From positions 15,190,001 through 15,254,000 of the forward strand of contig JBHGNT010000006.1 of the NCBI GenBank assembly GCA_043228905.1: a stretch of DNA of 64,000 bases, given 5' to 3'. Below are positions 12,794-43,042 of this stretch, piece by piece (the first letter of the stretch is position 1; the number at the start of each line of letters is the position of its first letter). Origin of the DNA: Azolla caroliniana. Lineage: Eukaryota; Plantae; Polypodiophyta. The notes beneath the pieces are model-generated. The model did no database searches. It worked only from the letters and a program-made list of their open reading frames with translations, and was not told where the DNA came from. Position numbers and translations under genes: made by a program.

Positions 12794-12940
12794 GTGTATG
12801 TAGTTGGGTAGTGTTAGGGTTGTTTATATGTTGTGAGTAAATAGCAGAATGTATATGTACTACATACATGCATACATACTCTATAGAGTCAATCAGTCAG
12901 TCAGTCAGTCAGTCTAGTATGTATGTATGTATTGTATGTA
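12509..12940. repeat. Microsatellite cluster around the TIM10 5' end: (GAA)n, (GGAA)n, (CTGT)n, (TTCC)n, (CTG)n, (CAGT)n, (TATG)n
   Basis: Directly visible. Confidence 0.95.
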
Positions 12941-12980
12941 CATATACTCGCCTCTCCTCTCCGTCCCCCGTTTCTTTCTC

Positions 12981-15900
12981 TTTATCGTGCCGAAAGTCCT
13001 CACTAGTAAGGATCAGGTGATATTTATCGCAGTTTGTTACTTCCCCCCGAAAGGGTCCCGCTACAATATGGCTGGAGAGGCGAGTATAGTTGATGAAGGA
13101 ACGCCACATGGGCCTTCCCCATACGAACCTTTGTCGGATGACATAATCCGATATTCTTCTCAAGGGGAAGTCTTCCTGGTAGGAGATTTCAATGCGAGAA
13201 CCCAGTCCCGACAATGCACAATATTTCAGATGGATAGAAACCTAGAAATGGTGAATGTCGACCCTTTAGCCTTAGGCATAACACGTACATCGAAGGATCA
13301 AGGTGCGGATGCCACAAGCTTTGGCCATCATCTGCTTGAACTTGGAAGCCGACACCAGATGATCATATATAATGGCTTAGCCAAGTGGCCGGGCTCGGAA
13401 GAGCTCACATGTTTCCCACATGGAGGAGGGGAAAGCACCGTTGATTATCTAATAGGACGCCCTGAAGCTACCCACATGGTTAGCTCCTTCCGGGTGGCCC
13501 CATGCCCCATTGGGGCAGACCATACCTTCCTATACTTTGAGCTAAAATGTGACACCTCCCACACCACCAACTCTAGTAAACCAACCCATCACACTATAAT
13601 ACATTTCACGCATGAGCTCGCGGACATCTACTCTCGACATGTTTAAGCCCATCTTTCCTCGTTTGATTCTTCCTTGCCTTTAGAGAACCTCACTACAGAA
13701 CTCACACACATCCTTCACTCAGCCGCCACTAGTAGCTTCCCATACACGAAAGACTCCAATCATAGTAGAATAGGGTCTATGCCACAAAACAAGTGGTATG
13801 ACGAGGATTGTAGAGAGTTGTATAGACAACTTAAAGTATCGCGACTCAGTGGTACTATCTCCTTAGTACAGGCTCGCAAAGAGATGCGCAAGATGACACG
13901 TCGTAAAAGACGAGCTTGGGAAGCATCTCAATATTGGGAACTCTACCATATGCTCATGAGTAGGGATTGTGCCCTTGCATGGAAGAGACTACGGGAACCG
14001 AGACCACAAACACCCATCGAGGGTCCCAATATTTGGCACACATATACCGAGAGACTCTACCATGTCCCGAACCAACCACCCATTCCAATGCCCTCCACAC
14101 CTCGACCTACCATGGGGACACTTTTCACGACCTCTAGGGTCACGAAGGTCATAAAAAAATTACAACATAGGAAATCCATGGACCACAAAGGATTGCGAGC
14201 CGAGCACATCATATATGCTCGAGAGTGCCTAGCTCCCCTTCTCACTCTAATCTTCAACCGCGCCCTCGCCGAGGGTTTTCCACCACAATGGGCCATGAAC
14301 ACTGTGGCCCCTATACATAAAGGAGGGGACCCAATGGACCCAAATACATATAGGACCATTATGATAGGTCATACGCTTGCTAAACTATATGGTGCAGTAA
14401 TGGAAGCGGAGCTCAGTGATTATATGGAAACATTAAGTCTTCGAGCACCCGAGCAGGCTGGCTTTAGACGAGCCTTCTCCACTATTGACCACATCTTCAC
14501 ACTTAGGTGCTTAATTGACCAAACAAAGGCTCGTAAGAAGAAACTATATTGTTGCTTTGTGGACTTTCGCAAAGCCTTTGATACAGTTCCTAGGGAGAGG
14601 TTGTTTGATAGACTTAAGAGCTTGGAGATACCAAATGACATGATTTGGGCCATTTATGCCCTATATGAGCAAGTCTGTGGGCGTGTAAGATGCCCAGGTG
14701 GCCTATCCGATTGTTTCACTAGCACCATTGGTGTAAAACAGGGTTGCCCCCTATCACCGACTCTTTTTGGGATCTACATTGATGAGATCACTGATTTTAT
14801 TGCTCGTAAGGGAGGCAAAGGAGTGGCTATTGGGGATACGCAAGTTAGTCTCTTACTCTACGCAGACGACATTGTCTTGCTCTCGGAGTCGAAACACGAC
14901 CTACAAAAGCATCTTAATGCCCTAGATGACTTTTGTACACAACGAGGACTGGTAGTGAATCTAGCGAAAACTAAAGTCCTTATCTTTCATACATCGTCCA
15001 GAGTTAGGAGTAAATGTCACCTCATCCTCTCTCATAAACTAGTTGAGGTGGTGGGATCTTATGTATACTTGGGAGTCACTTTTAGTGCTCGCTCAGGTAA
15101 ATTCTCGATGACCCAGGCAGCCAAAGATAGGCTAACGAGAGGATATGCATCCCTCTCACTCTTAGAGAGACAATGCCACCAAGCATACTTTCAAGAGCCA
15201 CAGACTAAGGGATGGCTTTTCGACTCATTAGTGACCCCGTCCCTCATGTATGCATCAGTAGTATGGGCTCCAGGTCTACCATCTTTCATGTGGACGCAAT
15301 TGGAGAGACCTTTAGTGGTGATGTTATCACGTCAACTCCGAAGCAAATCGACAGTACCACATGACATTATTAGAGCGGAGTTTAGCCTACCCCCGATGTT
15401 AGTAGAAGCACTCTTTCAAGTGGTAGCTTTTATTCATCGGATACATAGTCAACCACAAGATAGGATATCCCGTCGAGCCTTTGAGGCATCCCGATCCTTA
15501 CATGTGTCTGGAGACACTAACTCTTGGTATAGCATTGTGGTGAGTTGGTTATTTGCAAATGGCATAGACATTAATAACCTACCTCCCCTTAAGTACAACC
15601 ATGGGACTGATCAAACTTTAATCTCTCGGGAAGATCGTAATAAAGTGATACGCCAAGAAATATGGCAAATCTACACTCGATACAAATGGATCACCCCACG
15701 AGAGCCACTCCCATCTAAAATGGTGTACTATAAGGAACACTTCTTGCACTTCTCTAAGTTAGGGTTTATTACACGACCAAGATACCTAGATACTTTCTTA
15801 TCAAATGCACTAAGGGTGGCCATTGGACAACTTAGGATATCATCTCACCAACTTGAGATTGAGAATGGTCGAGCTAATAGAGTCCCTAGAGAGGAAAGGC

Positions 15901-16427
15901 TATGTAGGTTATGCCACATAGAGATAGAGGATGAGTATCACTTCACATGCAAGTGCCCAACTTATGCCGAGATACGTGCGGAATACCAAGACATACTAGG
16001 ACCCTCTCCCACCCTCTCCAAACTATTAGATACCCCGAGTGTAAAGAGACTAGGTAGGTATATCTTAGAGCTAAAACAACATAGGGAGGATAAATTACAA
16101 AGTGTTAATCATAACCCTTTTACTACTCATCAACATGTACCTAGTGTAATTTTTCAGGAACATGGGGAGACGATGAATGTGGATACACTTATGCCACTCG
16201 GCCTCTCCCTTGAGGAAGCAGAAATACAAAGAGCAACCAAACGTCCTCGGATGTTGGGCTTCAACACAAGTCAACGTGGAGTAGAAAAGATTAAGAAGAT
16301 AAGGGAACGTGAGCTACGTCGACTCGAAGCTATGGTTGGGGTACCTCTTACATGGGGACCACGGGCCACATCCATATGGCAACCCTTTGACCCCCCGCTT
16401 CTCTTCGAGAGACTTGGATGGAAATGA
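12981..16427 (+). pseudogene. LINE ORF2 (partial AP endonuclease, RT, C-terminal CCHC); one in-frame TAA at 13644-13646
   Basis: APE motifs VCYFPP, VGDFNAR, STVDY, ADH; RT motifs QAGFR, VDFRKAFDTV, GVKQGCPLSP, YADD, YLG; CRLC...EDEYHF..KC. ORFs 12927-13646 and 13674-16427 share a frame. Confidence 0.93.
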
Positions 16428-21990: not shown

Positions 21991-22722
21991 TGTCGTGCCT
22001 TTCGGCTCCGGATCGTTGCGTGAATCGGGTGGGAACCACCGAGGTTTTGGACTAGGAGAAAAGAAAATTCTAAGATAATTAAGAATATGAAATATATGGT
22101 AAGAAAGAAAGATATGAAAAACTCGTGAATCCCACGAGTATAGTGTATTAATTGATACTTAGAATGTAAGAGAGAAATAGATGGCAAAATCGTGAATCCC
22201 ACGAATATTTTTTTATTAATCAATCCTTGTAAAATAATCAACAACCCCCCATACATCTTTCTCTCCTCCTTATATAAGGATGGAAGAGGCTAAGCATAAC
22301 TTCACGCTTTTTCTAGAGTGTTCATGCACACTAAATGTGCATGAGTTGCCTTTTTACACTATGCTTTTATTTCCTAAATATAATGCTCATGCTTGTTAGA
22401 TGTGCACGAATCATTTTTCATTGGTGTACATTTTTATTTTATAAATAAAGTATCCACGCATTCTAAAAAAATGCATGACTTACCTTTTAATAAAGGTAGG
22501 TGTAAATAAAGGTCTTATACGTATTAAATCTATATTTAGATCACTTAGGATAAGTTAGTACAATGGTAAGGTTGGGGTTTGTCTATGTGGCGGTATAGGG
22601 TTTGAATCTTGCCCTATGCACGTAATAAATATTTTTAATATTTTATTTTATTTATTATACGTACTTTAAATCAGATATAGTATTTTACATATTTTACGTA
22701 GTGTGTGATTCACACTACGACA

Positions 22723-25570
22723 CTCGCCCCCTCCGAACCTGCACATCCTCCGGTATGTGCCGAAGTCCCCGATGCTTGCTTTTCACCTTCATCCGAAGCT
22801 TCCTCCGATTCTCCCCTTAAGTCGACTATGAGTTGTAATCCACTTTCTTCGCTTTCCGCATCACCGTGATCTTCGTTCGATTGCTCTTTCTTGTCAGTCT
22901 TGTCTAGGATCACATAGGGTTCTTCATCAGTCCGCTTCTTGAAAATCTTCACCCGTTTCCCGACTATAGGCACTCGTAGCATTGTTCCATCCAACTCGCA
23001 TAGTCGGTAAGTTTCGTTGTCGAAAACTTTCCGAACCTCGTATGGCCCGAACCACCTTTTCACAAACTTCCCCATCGTTGTATGTTGATGATCCAAACTA
23101 CTATCGTAGACAATCACCCAATCTCCTTCTTCAATCTTCCGCAGTCATAGTCGGTGCTTTGTGTCGAACCGGCTTTTATTCCGGAATCGCGCTTCTTGTT
23201 GTTGGCGTATTGCTTCTGCTATGTCTTCCGATCTTCCCTCTAGTTGTCGTATCCGGACCGCCAGTAGTTCGTCCCGGCTCATCTCTTCCTTCCACAGTAG
23301 CACTGTCCATGTCGCGATCGCGGTTTCCGTTAGCATCACCGGTGCTTGTCCGGTCATGAGTTCTGTCGGCATGTAACCGGTTACGGAGCTATGCGTCGTC
23401 TGATCCACCCATAGTGCACACGGAAGCATCTGTGGCCAATCCTTCACCCTTCCATCGCATGCCTTCGCAAGTGCTTTGACGATCGGACTATGTCCTCGTT
23501 CGACCTTCCCGTTGGCTTCCAGATTGTATGCCGTTGTCAGTGTTAACCGAACTCCATGTTTGGTGAAGAATTCCTTAGCTTTATCAGAGTCGAGTTTTCC
23601 TCGATCTGTAATCACTTGTCCTACGCACCCGTGCCTGCAAAACACCTCCTCCAAAAGAAATTGGCATATTGCAGAACACGTTTTCCTTCGTAACGCCCGA
23701 CCTTCTACTTGGTTTGTGAGATCTTCCCGAGCTAACACCAAGTACTTCTTTTGTCCGATTCCGGTTGGCATGGCTACAATATCGACCATCCATTTGAAGT
23801 TGATTGTCGGTGAGAATGTCGGATGTAACTCATCTCGGTGTCGAACTCCGGAGAAGATTTGACACTTCTCGCAGCTTTCCGTGAACTCCGCTATATCTTT
23901 GTACATGTTCTTCCACCAATATTTTTGTTTGATTTTCACAAGAGTTGCCCACGTTCCTCGATGTCCAGCCCAATCGAATTCGTGAAATCCGGACATTATC
24001 CGGTTTCGTTGCTCTTTCGTCCCGACTACCCGAAGTGGTATGCCATCCGGTCTTTTCGGCTCCCTCCATATTAATCCATTTCTCAAGAAGAACTTTCGGA
24101 CTTGCCGCTTCTTACTTCGGATCTCGGCTCTCTTCTCTTTATTGTCCGATGATTCCTCGATTTCTTGTAGCACTTTCCCGATCAGCAAGCTTTCTCCCTC
24201 GTATTCTTCTTCCCAGAATTCTCGGATTACGTTCACCCGACATATGTGCTCCGAAGCAAAGTAGTCTTCGGAAACTTCTTCATTATCGGATTCGGTTATG
24301 TCATCTCCGAACCGCGCCCTTTATAGCATATCCGCTATCGCATTGTCTTTTCCGGAGATGTGTCGTACCTCCGGATTAAGCGACTTAACATATGCAATCC
24401 ATCTTAGCATAGCCACATCCGGTATCGTGCAACACCGCATCATCCCGAGTATCGGAAGACAATCCGTTTCGATCACTACTTCGGCTCCGATCAAATAATC
24501 TCGATCCAATTTTATTGCCGACACAACTCCCCATAATTCTCTTTTGACTTGTGCATATCCGCGTTGCCTTTCGTTGAGAACCTTTGCTCCGAATCGGATC
24601 GGATATCGCGAACCATCCGGATCGGCTTGATTGATGACCCATCCGATCCCGGTTGGACTTGTGTCAACCGTTACTATGATCGGATGGTCATAGTTCGGCT
24701 TCTTTAGTGCTTTTGCCCTCCGTAATGATTTCTTGAGCTTCTTCACGGCTTTGGTATGCTCCGAGTACGGAGCGTTTGATGGCTCTAGAATCCCCACCGC
24801 CACCTTCTCCTTGAGCAAGTCGATGACTTTCGGAATATGTGCCCGTGGCACCGGCATCGGCTTCAGGTTCCACAACACATGGTCAATCGTGAAGATCACC
24901 ATCGGCTCCACTATCTTCGGATCAACGCACCCTATCTCCTTCGATGTGAATGCAAATGATTCCCCATGTTGTTCCAACATCCCTCAGAATCGTTCTTCTT
25001 CATTTTGTAAAAAGAAACCACCTCCACTGATCCGAAGTTTCTTCCGGGTCTCATCCATGAAGGCATGTCCGATATCCACGAACTTCCGAAGTGTCGGATC
25101 TCCTGAGACTTCTTTCCTCTTTTGTTTGCTATCGACGAGTAGTGGTCCCGCGGCCGGTTTCACCTTCTTCTCCACGGTCTTGTATTCCGTACTTACCATT
25201 GCTTCTTCTTTGCGGAGCACATCCGGCCCCATTTTCACAATGATCTCATACATCTCGACCGATTCCACCAAAACTACCCGGTCTCGCTGGCTTGTATCTT
25301 TCGCGAGCTCTTCAAGCCATTGTAGCATGCTCCCATAGAGCATTTCTTCAACTATTCCCACGATTTCTTCATCTTCTTTTATCATTGATGCCGACCGTAA
25401 CTTATCCTCCACCTTTCGGTATTCTTTCTTCATTCCTCCGGTTACAGCCGTGTACGTAGATGCCCCATCCGGACCGATTCGTACTTGTTTTGCTCCGAGA
25501 GTTTTCTTCCTGTGTGGGGTATCAGGGCTTCTCGGACTATCACTTCCCCACTCCGCAACAGTCCGCTCTA
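22723..25570 (-). pseudogene. pol: A2 pol: RT core deleted, RNaseH and integrase retained with stops
   Basis: EPSNAPYS joined directly to EHTKAV; RH motifs VDTSPTGIG, ETDCLP; INT motifs H..WAGH, CEKC, WMVD, ERGH, GPY. Confidence 0.9.
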
Positions 25571-25577
25571 AAAATCC
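25512..25577 (-). promoter_or_regulatory. Predicted -1 ribosomal frameshift signal (G GAU UUU + pseudoknot), A2
   Basis: GGATTTT, then TAG; 5-nt spacer; stem 1 CGGACTGTTGC/GTGATAGTCCG; loop GTGGGG pairs with downstream CCCCAC; pol is in the -1 frame. Confidence 0.8.
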
Positions 25578-26972
25578 ATCCTTGTTTGGGACAAGAGCTC
25601 TCTCTTGTTCCTTTCATGATTTGCCGGCACTGTTAGGAATTGGACGGATTTCCCTCCGTTTTGGCTCCGAATTCGTGCAAAAGCCGCACCGCTATCGAGC
25701 ACCTTCGTCTCCATCCGTGATGCTGTGATAAAGGGTTGCCCAAGGATCATGGAGTGTGAGACCTTGTCTTGTACGAAGAAATTTTGGTCGATCTCGACAT
25801 CCCCGATCTTCACCATCACATCCGGACAAGCCGCAAATAGATCTTCCGTTGCTTTAGTGGCCGCCCGGATCTTCCATCCATGATTGGTGTTAATAGGCCA
25901 CTTCCCCTTCCAGTAGAACTCTTTGGACATCAAATTGATCTCCGATCCGTGATCAATCAATGCTAGCACGGGCTCTTTGATGTTGCCGATTCGGACCGGA
26001 GTCTCCGTAGTTGCATGCGCCCAGTGTGGCTTTGTATAGTGGGAATTCGGAATCTCGTCCTCCACTTCGGTGTCATTCATTAAGATAGTATTTGCATTAA
26101 CCCTTGGAGCATTTTCCTCCGTACTTTGTCTTTTTCTCTTCACGAGATCCACAAGAAGATCATGGAACTCTTTTTTTGCTATTCCGAGTAGTTCCCGAAG
26201 CGAAAAATCTACCCGGATGTCAAGAATTCTCTCCTCGAACACCTTTTTCAAGTCCGTTTGTTGTTCGATGTCCGAGGTGAGCTTGAATGCCGAAATCGTT
26301 TTTCCTTTCCCCCTTCCGTCGGAGTTCCAACTCTCCGGTGTCTTCGATGGTCCTGCCGCATCCTCCGTGCGTCGCTGCTTCTCGTCCACATACACCTCAT
26401 GTAATTGACATAGGGCATATACGCTATTCTTATCGACGGGGCACTCCCATCCCGTAGCTTCTCGGATGCCTTCCGCGGTGCTTCGGATCTTGTTAGAATC
26501 TGTTTTCTCGGTGTTTTCTAGCACTTCCGGCCAAAAAGACACCTTTGCTCCCGATGACTCCCCAACACGTATTCCCGCGGTTGTCGTGTAATTGCTCTTC
26601 GCTGCTATTTCCTCCTCTAGGACCTTCTTCATGCCGCCTTTTCGGAAGTTCGGTCGGAGCGGCTTTCGAGAGTCCATCGAATGAATCCGATTTCCCTCGT
26701 AGTAGATAAGATCCTGTCGTAGCGCTTCCTTGTGCTCGTCGCAATCCCACCGATCATGTTCGGTGCTATCGCACCAGATGCACCGACGGTCCATATACTT
26801 CGAACTTGTGGGACGGTCATCCGACTTCTTCACCATCGCGATTTTTAGATTCTCCATCTCCTTCAGCAACTGCTCCACCGTAGTTGCGTCGATTCCCTTC
26901 TTGGTCGTAGCTTCTCGAGCCCGCGGTTGATGGTCTTCCGATCTGGATCTCGGTTTCGGAATCGGTTCCGAA

Positions 26973-33204: not shown

Positions 33205-34845
33205 CTTGTGTCGTGCCTTTCGGCCCCGGATCGTTGCATGAATCGGGTGGGAACCATCGAGGTTTTGGACTAGGAGAAAAGAAAATTCTAAGATATTTAA
33301 GAATATGAAATATATGGTAAGAAAGAAAGATATGAAAAACTCGTGAATCCCACGAGTATAGTGTATTAATTGATACTTAGAATGTAAGAGAGAAATAGAT
33401 GGCAAAATCGTGAATCCCACGAATATTTTTTTATTAATCAATCCTTGTAAAATAATCAACAACCCCCCATACATCTTTCTCTCCTCATATAAGGATGGAA
33501 GAGGCTAAGCATAGCTTCATGCTTTTTCTAGAGTGTTCATGCACACTAAATGTGCATGAGTTGCCTTTTTACACTATGCTTTTATTTCCTAAATATAATG
33601 CTCATGCTCGTTAGATGTGCACAAGTCATTTTTCATTGGTGTACATTTTTTTATTATAAATAAAGTATCCACGCATTCTAAAAAAATGCATGATTTACCT
33701 TTTAATAAAGGTAGGCGTAAATAAAGGTCTTATACATATTAAATAAAGGTCTTATACGTAAATATAGACTTGAAATGGACCGCAGGCGGGTAAGTCGGGT
33801 GTAACTCGTTCCGATGTCGGACTACGGAGTGCATCTAACAACTTTCGCAAGTCGTTACGAACCGATGCACGTCTTGGTACAGCCCCGGCCACCAGTACTT
33901 CTCCTTCACCTTCTTGAACGTGGCCCACGTTCCGCGGTGCCCGGCCCAGGGACTCTCGTGAAATGCCGCCAGTAGTTCCTCATGTTCTTCTTTCTTCGCC
34001 ACTACTCGGAGCGGAACGCCGTTTCTCTTCTTTGGGTGCTTCCATATGTACCCGTCCCGAAGGAAGAATCAGTACGCTTTCTTCCGGATCCGGTTGGTCT
34101 CTTCCTTTGTCCACGCCGCGTCCAGTGTCATTGATTTCAGGAGCCCGCCGATCCGGAGCCACTCCCCGTCGTACTTGCTCTCGTCGAATTCGTTAAACGC
34201 CGGAGTGCTCCCCTTTCTGGTTGCCACGTATGTCGCCTCGAAGAAATCTACCACGACTTCCTCGTCCTCCGAAACCATGCCGTCCTCGTTTCTGAACCTC
34301 ACCCTTGAGAGCATGTCGGCCATGGCATTGTCTTTTCTGGAAATGTGTCGTATCTCCGGATTCAAGGACTTGATGTACGCTATCCACCTAAGCATTGCCA
34401 GGTCCGGCGTCGCGCATCCGGAAACCATGCCTAGAATCGGCAAGCAGTCCGTCTCGATTATTACCTCTATCCCGATAAGGTAGTCTTTATTGGCCTTCAC
34501 CGCCGAAACGATACCCCAGAGTTCGCGTTTAACCTGGGCGTATCCTCACTGTTGCTCACTGAGGACCTTCGCGCCGAACCGGATGGGGAACCTCGTGCCA
34601 ACGTCATCCTCTTGGTTGATCACGCATCTAATCCCGGTCGGACTCGTGTCTACGGTTACATAAATCGAAGTGTCTTTGCCGTAGACCGCCTTTCGGAGTG
34701 CCAGTGTCATGGCAAGTGCTTCCTTCATCTTTCGGACTGACTCCGTATGCTCGTCTCCCCACTCAAATTTACGCCCTTTCTTCAGAAACCCATATAGTGG
34801 CTCCGCGATGTGGGCGTAATGCGGGATCCAGATATGGTAGAACGT

Positions 34846-40974: not shown

Positions 40975-41565
40975 CGCTTGCTCACGTATAGACAAAGAAG
41001 CGCACGGGGACGCGCGACACAACAACACAGGAGACACAAGTTGGGTAGGAGATAGAGTATAAGAACGCGTATATAAATGTATGTATGCAGACGACTCGAA
41101 CGGTTACAGCTGATCAGGTCGGCGAGACGGGTGTCGACGCCTGATCACCCACGCACACACGGGAGCAAGATGGAGATTCTGCAGGAAGCACACGGGCGTT
41201 CCACGGAGCAGAATCAGCCTCTCGAGAACTTGGGCAAAGAAAGCTTATGGAGAATGACAGAGGAGAAGAGCTCGGTCCTAGTCCGACAGCACTTCGTCCC
41301 CTCTAGCGTGCATGTCCCCCTTCTCTCCCCTTCTCCCTCTCTTTTATAGCTCAAGGAGGGAGGCCGCCTTGCCCGTTTACATCACATTAATTCTCTGTCC
41401 TTTCGGACAGAGATACTCCTCGATTCTCCCTATAGAATATTGCTACCTAGGATCTGACCTTTGTGCCTACCTATCTACTGTACCACAAGGGGCGTGCCCA
41501 TGTGTAAGGGCCAGTTTACACACGCTATATACGATTTGCGCCTGGGGACGGTTTTCTTCACGACA
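34846..41565 (-). mobile_element. Gypsy element B1, nested in the RT-RH connection of B2
   Basis: LTRs 34846-35430 and 40871-41565 (TGTCG...ACGACA); 4-bp TSD ACGT/ACGC; PBS-Trp; gag 40827, PR VDHGS, RT DLYSGY/FLDD, partial RH, INT with GPY. Confidence 0.95.
38655..38720 (-). promoter_or_regulatory. Predicted -1 frameshift signal, B1
   Basis: GGATTTT TGA; stem 1 GGGCTATC/GATAGTCC; stem 2 GTGGGG/CCCCAC. Confidence 0.8.
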
Positions 41566-42975: not shown

Positions 42976-43042
42976 ATGGGGTTTTTCCAGGGTGTCTGGA
43001 CTATCGCGGCCCCACACCTTGATAGCCCTCTCTAAAACTCCC
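42976..43042 (-). promoter_or_regulatory. Predicted -1 frameshift signal, B2 (variant slip site GGAGTTT TAG)
   Basis: Same stem 1 GGGCTATC/GATAGTCC; stem 2 GTGGGG/CCCCAT. Confidence 0.6.

Follow-up and report, generated by a model that had tools for sequence, protein, structure and literature searches.

A coding organisation close to the one described here is that of the alpharetroviruses, e.g., Rous sarcoma virus, in which the protease is encoded in the Gag frame and a single −1 ribosomal frameshift, with a heptamer and a 3′ structure, falls between protease and reverse transcriptase (RT), a pattern given as '0/−1' (PMC1224870). G_GA heptamers are listed as established −1 sites in umbraviruses, dianthoviruses and others, with a usual distance of 5–9 nt between heptamer and 3′ stimulator (PMC5009743). 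For plant long terminal repeat (LTR) retrotransposons other arrangements are on record. Among the Tat elements, Ogre has an intron between GAG-PROT and RT and Retand a single in-frame stop, and the 2019 table of the same source enters no group with GAG-PROT overlapping RT in another frame (PMC6317226). A 2016 review citing a 2003 survey counts just two types of plant element whose frames are split, in each case at +1 (PMC5009743), and a 2025 review of plant elements speaks of frameshifting in general terms (PMC12786077). Here we analyse the junction between the Gag-protease and polymerase (pol) frames of Ty3/gypsy elements from a 64,000-nt stretch of the Azolla caroliniana genome (contig JBHGNT010000006.1, positions 15,190,001–15,254,000; hereafter the window, to whose positions all coordinates refer). 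In contrast to Ogre and Retand, the two frames of these elements overlap and change phase, and their sequences make it very likely that the junction is a programmed −1 ribosomal frameshift signal.

The junction is contained in copy A2, which lies, like the cassettes of copies B1 and B2, on the minus strand. The first open reading frame (ORF1) of A2 terminates with the codons ATG GAT TTT TAG, and the −1 frame, open from just 12 codons 5′ of the heptamer GGATTTT, continues for 197 codons and has its first ATG at 25433. Three features of a canonical −1 signal are present, namely an in-phase heptamer (in its G_GA variant), a spacer of 5–6 nt followed by a covarying predicted knot, and an open downstream frame without a start of its own. 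In the proposed mechanism, ribosomes would stall at the predicted H-type pseudoknot 5–6 bases past G_GAU_UUU and, while the knot resists unwinding, the tRNAs on GAU and UUU would re-pair at GGA and UUU. The majority of ribosomes, being unshifted, would halt at the adjacent stop, with Gag-protease as the product, and a smaller share, having moved back by one base, would go on to synthesise Gag-protease-RT-RNase H-integrase. We infer the folding of the knot in vivo, the slippage and the ratio of the products (abundant Gag-protease, rare Gag-protease-Pol). A preliminary description of this DNA had reported the Gag-protease frame of A2 ending in GGATTTT TAG with a −1 frame leading to RT, as well as an 11-bp stem 1 and a GTGGGG/CCCCAC stem 2; both frames and both stems lie where it had placed them. 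A perfect 8-pair hairpin spanning 31 nt occurs at only 73 of 127,938 window positions, which argues against a chance origin of the cassette, and single-strand folding of the three window cassettes, with pseudoknots left out, gave no significant z-score (−0.8 to −1.2). A2 itself is a dead copy, since about 740 bp of its RT core are lost at 24763 and a copia element is nested in its gag, splitting off the gag 5′ part; stops at 24984 and 24321 further interrupt its pol frame.

Conservation of this layout was examined in 80 metagenome loci with an RT 52–92% identical, 52 of which hold protease and RT in order (one domain is absent or misplaced in the other 28). In these 52 loci the pol frame is at −1 relative to the protease frame in 49 and at +1/−2 in three, one of them (L117) being a decayed −1 copy with a later indel, and in none do protease and RT share one frame. 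All but one contain an in-phase heptamer, which is GGATTTT in 47, GGTTTTT in two, and GGGTTTT and GGATTTC in one each. From the heptamer to the start of RT, the −1 frame of the 23 scored −1 families contains no stops, versus 184 and 252 in the other two frames; three further families fell outside the motif search, L106 having a stop and the other two appearing open on visual inspection. The pol frame's first Met can be found anywhere between codons 3 and 110. In five loci (L103, L106, L119, L124 and L129) ORF1 reads 5 to 21 codons beyond the heptamer, through the knot, and thus an adjacent stop is common but not required. Counts over the 523-Mb genome that holds the window gave 3789 matches to the pattern GGATTTTN{5,7}GGRCYRYY, which combines the heptamer with the start of the stem, versus 56 for the reversed control, and the spacer is 6 nt long in 98 of 100 listed matches.

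More distant or differently sampled relatives were also found. Five proteins (P0104–P0108) with 35–40% RT identity are single chains of 1684–2123 residues, some with protease and RT, which suggests that single-frame relatives exist outside the frameshifting group. In gene models of the liverwort Riccia (P0022–P0103, proteins only) the joint between Gag-protease and Pol is variable, which is what predicted introns that bridge a frameshift would produce; a frameshift would account for the varied places at which gene predictors fuse the Gag and Pol of these elements. No relative turned up in two scans of viral contigs. The prokaryote collection yielded four loci, probably contaminants, of which one was useful (L209): L209 and L210 are close relatives on short contigs in bacterial assemblies, probably plant contamination, and L209 has the −1 cassette.

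The RNA structure was assessed in an alignment of 30 non-redundant cassettes (two from the window, 27 from the 52 metagenome loci, and L209), which were aligned by sequence alone and in which stem 1 is gap-free. In 27 of the 28 −1 rows the core of stem 1 starts 6 nt past the heptamer, spans 31 nt and forms 7–9 of 9 pairs, and the hairpin of L129, though shorter, keeps this spacing. The eight core pairs are paired in 229 of 240 cells, and two-sided changes occur in 14 of the 17 proposed pairs. The covariation score was 0.353 versus 0.228 for shuffled alignments (reached in 0/500 shuffles, values that are not probabilities) and 0.08–0.15 for slid controls. The most divergent members (L113, L119, L124 and L209) have wholly different stems with intact complementarity. 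For stem 2, the duplex of loop and tail has −13.1 kcal/mol when both strands come from the same family and −10.3 kcal/mol when they are swapped between families (0/10,000 permutations). These values come from a test with fixed geometry, which replaced a free pseudoknot search with tight limits that missed 5/30 cassettes, placed L209 with an offset of 6 nt and scored B1 poorly. The heptamer and the stems are thus both kept among relatives, the stems covarying across diverged families. At the coding level, the cassette shows less synonymous divergence than the downstream linker in 6/7 pairs, and the amino acids encoded across it vary freely; the ratio of nonsynonymous to synonymous change (dN/dS) of the cassette exceeds 1 in 6/7 pairs because synonymous change is suppressed. 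Judged from these comparisons, the constraint on the cassette is on the RNA, at a fixed distance from the heptamer.

The evidence for covariation must come from such distant relatives, as the differences between families A and B within the window are one-sided only and their stem 2 is identical. The preliminary description had read these differences as G-U/Watson-Crick swaps that preserve pairing. Its account of B1 (GGATTTT TGA with both stems) is accurate, and the −1 frame of this copy has 447 codons and reaches RT. B2, which it had called similar, does keep most of the stems, but its heptamer is GGAGTTT and an in-frame TGA lies upstream.

That the frame change falls after the protease, as the preliminary description had proposed, follows from the predicted fold of the domain at the end of ORF1, which is that of a retropepsin. 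Pfam and PDB sequence matches to this domain are weak, with an Asp_protease_2 match in 9/16 aligned members, and its AlphaFold model, with a predicted local distance difference test (pLDDT) of 81, resembles Ddi1 and retroviral proteases (best E 1.2e-6). The usual catalytic motif is D-S/T-G. Here it is D-H-G in 14/16 aligned families (25952–25960 in the window, minus strand), and D-S-G and D-G-G in the others. Between the slip site and the start of RT there is a linker of about 125 residues (25161–25500, minus strand), the sequence pattern of which is conserved in all relatives and which has no consistent Pfam match among them. Its structure model is poor (predicted template modelling score, pTM, 0.40), and the central part is predicted, at low overall confidence, to form a small alpha/beta unit. 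The linker dN/dS of 0.14–0.36 in the five unsaturated of seven pairs indicates purifying selection on the pol frame.

The order protease, RT, RNase H, integrase, obtained with Pfam on full frames of family B and family C copies and by fold for the protease, identifies the elements as Ty3/gypsy (Metaviridae), and the coding region occupies the element interior. Direct LTRs of the TG...CA type are paired in 10 of the 11 stretches examined, one site not having been located by the script. A primer-binding site (PBS) lies 3–6 nt past the 5′ LTR and a G-rich tract ahead of the 3′ LTR. The 4-bp NCGN target duplication is exact in five of the 11 stretches, has one mismatch in three and is unresolved in three. 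In families A, B and C the PBS is complementary to a motif that matches the genome 64 times, and the four matches inspected all fall within tRNA-Trp(CCA) genes. The tRNA-Trp 3′ motif also occurs in regularly spaced clusters at C8:17.80–17.82 Mb, C16:4.99–5.11 Mb and C5:10.11 Mb, which are possibly tandem tRNA gene arrays. Pfam matched neither a chromodomain nor an additional RNase H in two full pol frames. The NCGN duplication, the tRNA-Trp PBS, the lack of chromodomain and extra RNase H and the interior taken up by coding sequence are all shared with the Phygy clade of non-chromovirus Ty3/gypsy elements (Neumann et al. 2019, PMC6317226), for which that work lists the coding organisation as not determined. 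Family C (7.9–8.0 kb) is within the size range given there for Phygy (7.66–9.97 kb), and families A and B (7.0–7.3 kb) are smaller. By these marks the elements are Phygy-like Ty3/gypsy. The named homologues of pol are gene models of Riccia and of the fern Adiantum, from which a seed-free host plant is probable.

Two other routes to pol have to be weighed against a −1 frameshift. Pol might be translated from a spliced RNA, either through an Ogre-like intron (PMC6317226) or as a pol mRNA of the foamy virus kind, the U-rich run and a nearby AG serving as acceptor and the stems regulating splicing. TTTTTAG in those families whose stop is TAG, like TTTTTGACTAG|G in family C, does look like an acceptor, but no AG is found at a shared offset (at most 12/26 families at any offset), several families having none in the spacer, and neither L081 nor L213 has a phase-2 donor within the last 330 nt of ORF1. 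In addition, sequence past the stop has one open frame on which purifying selection acts, unlike an intron, and the elements differ in the same way from the non-coding intron of the Ogre type, their frames overlapping. The fixed 6-nt distance to the knot would also suit a ribosome better than a spliceosome. Splicing is highly unlikely to be the route to pol. Reinitiation or internal initiation at an AUG of the linker, with the knot as part of the initiation signal, draws on the Met found ahead of RT in every family, one of which is common to both −2 families described below. Yet the position of the first Met varies widely and the frame is stop-free all the way from the heptamer. The 15 codons preceding the Met common to the −2 families are conserved as protein (10/15 identical, four of them through synonymous changes). 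Internal initiation also leaves the invariant heptamer unexplained and is less probable still than splicing. Transcript data consist of three polyA runs, carrying another organism label, on family A and family C copies; they gave 13–122 reads, mostly less than 90% alike, with practically no depth at the slip site. Stranded polyA reads with another organism label cover gag of L031 (4437–6080) in the sense direction and are nearly gone before protease and pol, which could mean that the gag transcript is short, that a single truncated copy is the source, or that the sequences have diverged.

Several points weigh against a programmed −1 shift. G_GA permits only weak re-pairing at the P site, and the linker of L106 contains a stop. 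Stem 2 is weak in L088, L103 and L106, the shuffle control for covariation takes no account of relatedness, and one aligned row served as the source of the structure. GGAGTTT stands in place of the heptamer in B2 and likewise in one of two full-length copies of family B, which has both frames open. The breadth of hosts is limited, since most of the metagenome loci are collapsed repeats from a single accession series. Finally, conservation among genome copies (GGATTTT in 27/30 copies of family A and 27/30 of family B; a stop directly after it in 30/30 and 28/30, respectively; best 30 of 40 listed in each family) is partly built in, because the copies were picked by similarity to a query containing the site.

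An additional variation occurs in a subgroup that the preliminary description missed, as it lies outside the window, and that consists of the metagenome loci L081 and L082 and of family C of the window's genome. In L081 and L082 ORF1 ends with CAG GTT TTT (G/T)AC TAG and pol is open in the −2/+1 frame over 1181 and 1106 codons, respectively. Family C has about 100 copies (119 pattern matches versus nine for the control), with a 5-nt spacer in 93 of 100 listed matches. In its 30 best copies, a crude frame call places RT at −2/+1 in 21, the other nine having altered distances and closed frames as in decayed copies; the −2 frame is open to the end of the locus in nine and the −1 frame meets TGA after one codon in 24. 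Six copies chosen for long frames have LTRs 99.1–100% identical, with both frames whole in four (739 and 1181–1182 codons) and pol unbroken over 1181 codons in five. The heptamer GGTTTTT is present in 27 of the 30 copies, and L081 and L082 both have AG_GTT_TTT. The knot is retained in the subgroup, with compensatory changes between L081 and L082. Over stem 1 the pol phase of the subgroup is that of the −1 families, and the stem starts 5 rather than 6 nt past the heptamer, so that the change amounts to one spacer base fewer and a new heptamer.

In an RT tree of 55 rows, L081, L082 and family C form one clade (100/100) within the −1 families, with a nesting support of 98/98. Against this, a smaller tree with L129 as the sole and very long outgroup left the base unresolved, and the approximately unbiased (AU) test did not reject a tree in which the −1 families form a clade of their own that excludes the −2 rows (p 0.56); as the outgroup L129 is −1, −2 is nevertheless the more parsimonious derived state. 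The subgroup probably uses −2 slippage, and would then represent a natural switch from −1 to −2 frameshifting stimulated by RNA structure, through the loss of a spacer base and the change of the heptamer from G_GAU_UUU to AG_GUU_UUU. This is one evolutionary event, seen in two diverged families. [quoted passage not shown] A spacer 1–2 nt shorter than for −1 is reported to favour −2, as shown in engineered RNAs on U6A and not on AG_GUU_UUU (PMC3458567).

On paper the +1 and −2 frames are identical, and pol of the subgroup might therefore be reached through a +1 shift, either where UUU precedes GAC/UAC or on the UAG stop. Shifts of this kind are known in Ty1 and Ty3 (PMC5911963) and two plant element types have pol in +1 (PMC5009743), and in L082 and 5/30 family C copies a U comes after UUU, permitting clean +1 re-pairing. 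However, UUU is followed by G in 25/30 family C copies, a poor landing for +1, whereas −2 slippage gives the A-site tRNA a perfect UUU; the shared octamer is the −2 octamer of PRRSV, and the shorter spacer is of the kind known to favour −2 (PMC3458567). The knot lies 5 nt from the heptamer and, because stem 1 begins inside the stop codon, would already have been opened when a ribosome reads the stop. A +1 shift is thus rather unlikely. The subgroup could also be a non-autonomous lineage with a fixed one-base deletion, mobilised by the enzymes of the −1 families, which are far commoner (3789 versus 119 pattern matches) and share the primer site. The unbroken pol of five of the six chosen copies with near-identical LTRs, the L081–L082 linker dN/dS of 0.14 at a proportion of synonymous differences (pS) of 0.55, the compensatory stem changes between these two loci and the change of the heptamer along with the spacer all speak against this, and make it very improbable.

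Several known systems share parts of the arrangement. The '0/−1' pattern of Rous sarcoma virus, to which the preliminary description had likened the Gag-protease/−1/Pol layout, is indeed the same in the placement of protease and frame change. The elements described here differ from it in being plant Ty3/gypsy without env, in using another heptamer and in having before RT the linker of about 125 residues, which is of no known family; the likeness is likely convergent and, as far as tested, not due to descent. Pea enation mosaic virus RNA2 (an umbravirus) and the dianthovirus red clover necrotic mosaic virus share G_GAU_UUU, with a stop just downstream, and their listing bears out the earlier recognition of GGAUUUU as a −1 heptamer of dianthoviruses (PMC5009743). 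Those sites combine a stem-loop with pairing kilobases away (PMC5009743), whereas the elements have a compact local H-type knot and the stop directly after the heptamer. In PRRSV nsp2TF, frameshifting at the octamer shared with the subgroup involves no RNA structure and needs a C-rich motif 11 nt on together with proteins (PMC4937337), whereas family C has no such motif and shows a covarying knot 5 nt on, and the PRRSV-type motif CCCANCUCC is absent within 200 nt in L081 and L082. A frameshift between protease and pol in Dictyostelium Skipper, considered as a possible parallel, was not supported in the literature consulted, ORF2 encoding both protease and RT.

No description of this cassette was found in the literature searched, subscription papers, Repbase entries and preprint supplements being outside its reach. 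Since the two split-frame plant element types of the 2003 survey are both +1 and the 2019 table has no overlap of GAG-PROT with RT, a −1 knot conserved downstream of the protease would add a strategy new to plant elements, one that parallels the alpharetroviruses. It would also provide an expression mechanism for an abundant plant retrotransposon group (3789 cassette matches) with a coding layout listed as not determined. Greater weight attaches to the −2 branch. The 2016 review names phage Mu, the arteriviruses and Trichomonas virus 1 as −2 cases (PMC5009743). If true, the lineage would have retained one knot-driven frameshift past its protease over deep divergence, and the subgroup would have a natural structure-stimulated −2 signal in a retroelement, essential for expression of the polymerase, and would have converged on the slip site of PRRSV without its protein activators. 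It would likewise bear out in nature the spacer-tension model, hitherto demonstrated on engineered constructs (PMC3458567), a model that becomes directly testable with two natural cassettes sharing a knot and differing by one spacer base and the slip site.

Table 1. Positions of the junction cassettes and associated features in the window.
Feature	Copy	Position	Strand	Basis or remark
ORF1 3′ part (Gag region with DUF4100 match, then protease; ends ...RMDF*)	A2	25568..26972	−	
Retropepsin-type protease at ORF1 end; D-H-G catalytic motif, Asp codon at 25954	A2	25571..26050	−	Pfam and AlphaFold model
Slippery heptamer GGATTTT (G_GAU_UUU), ORF1 phase G GAT TTT	A2	25577-25571	−	47/52 metagenome relatives identical
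ORF1 stop TAG, first half of 6-nt spacer	A2	25570-25568	−	
Predicted pseudoknot stem 1, 5′ strand, CGGACTGTTGC	A2	25565-25555	−	
Predicted pseudoknot stem 1, 3′ strand, GTGATAGTCCG	A2	25543-25533	−	
Predicted pseudoknot stem 2, 5′ strand, GTGGGG, inside stem 1 loop	A2	25551-25546	−	
Predicted pseudoknot stem 2, 3′ strand, CCCCAC	A2	25519-25514	−	
Pol frame (−1): ~125-residue linker, RT start, RNase H, integrase	A2	23145..25613	−	
5′ LTR, partial, approximate	A2	33209..33744	−	blastn to family A element
3′ LTR, approximate	A2	21991..22654	−	blastn to family A element
Cassette: GGATTTT, TGA, 8-bp stem 1, 7-bp stem 2, 6-nt spacer	B1	38720-38654	−	
Decayed cassette: GGAGTTT (43041-43035), in-frame TGA just upstream, stems largely kept	B2	42976..43041	−	

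The copies listed in Table 1 belong to a nested and tandem array on the minus strand (20091–45863), which contains A2 with the copia element in its gag and a partial tandem A copy (21988–20091). B2 and B1 stand in tandem with a common LTR near 41565 (minus strand). Elsewhere in the window, an element of the long interspersed nuclear element (LINE) type on the plus strand (12918–16427) encodes an endonuclease and has an RT frame of 926 codons.

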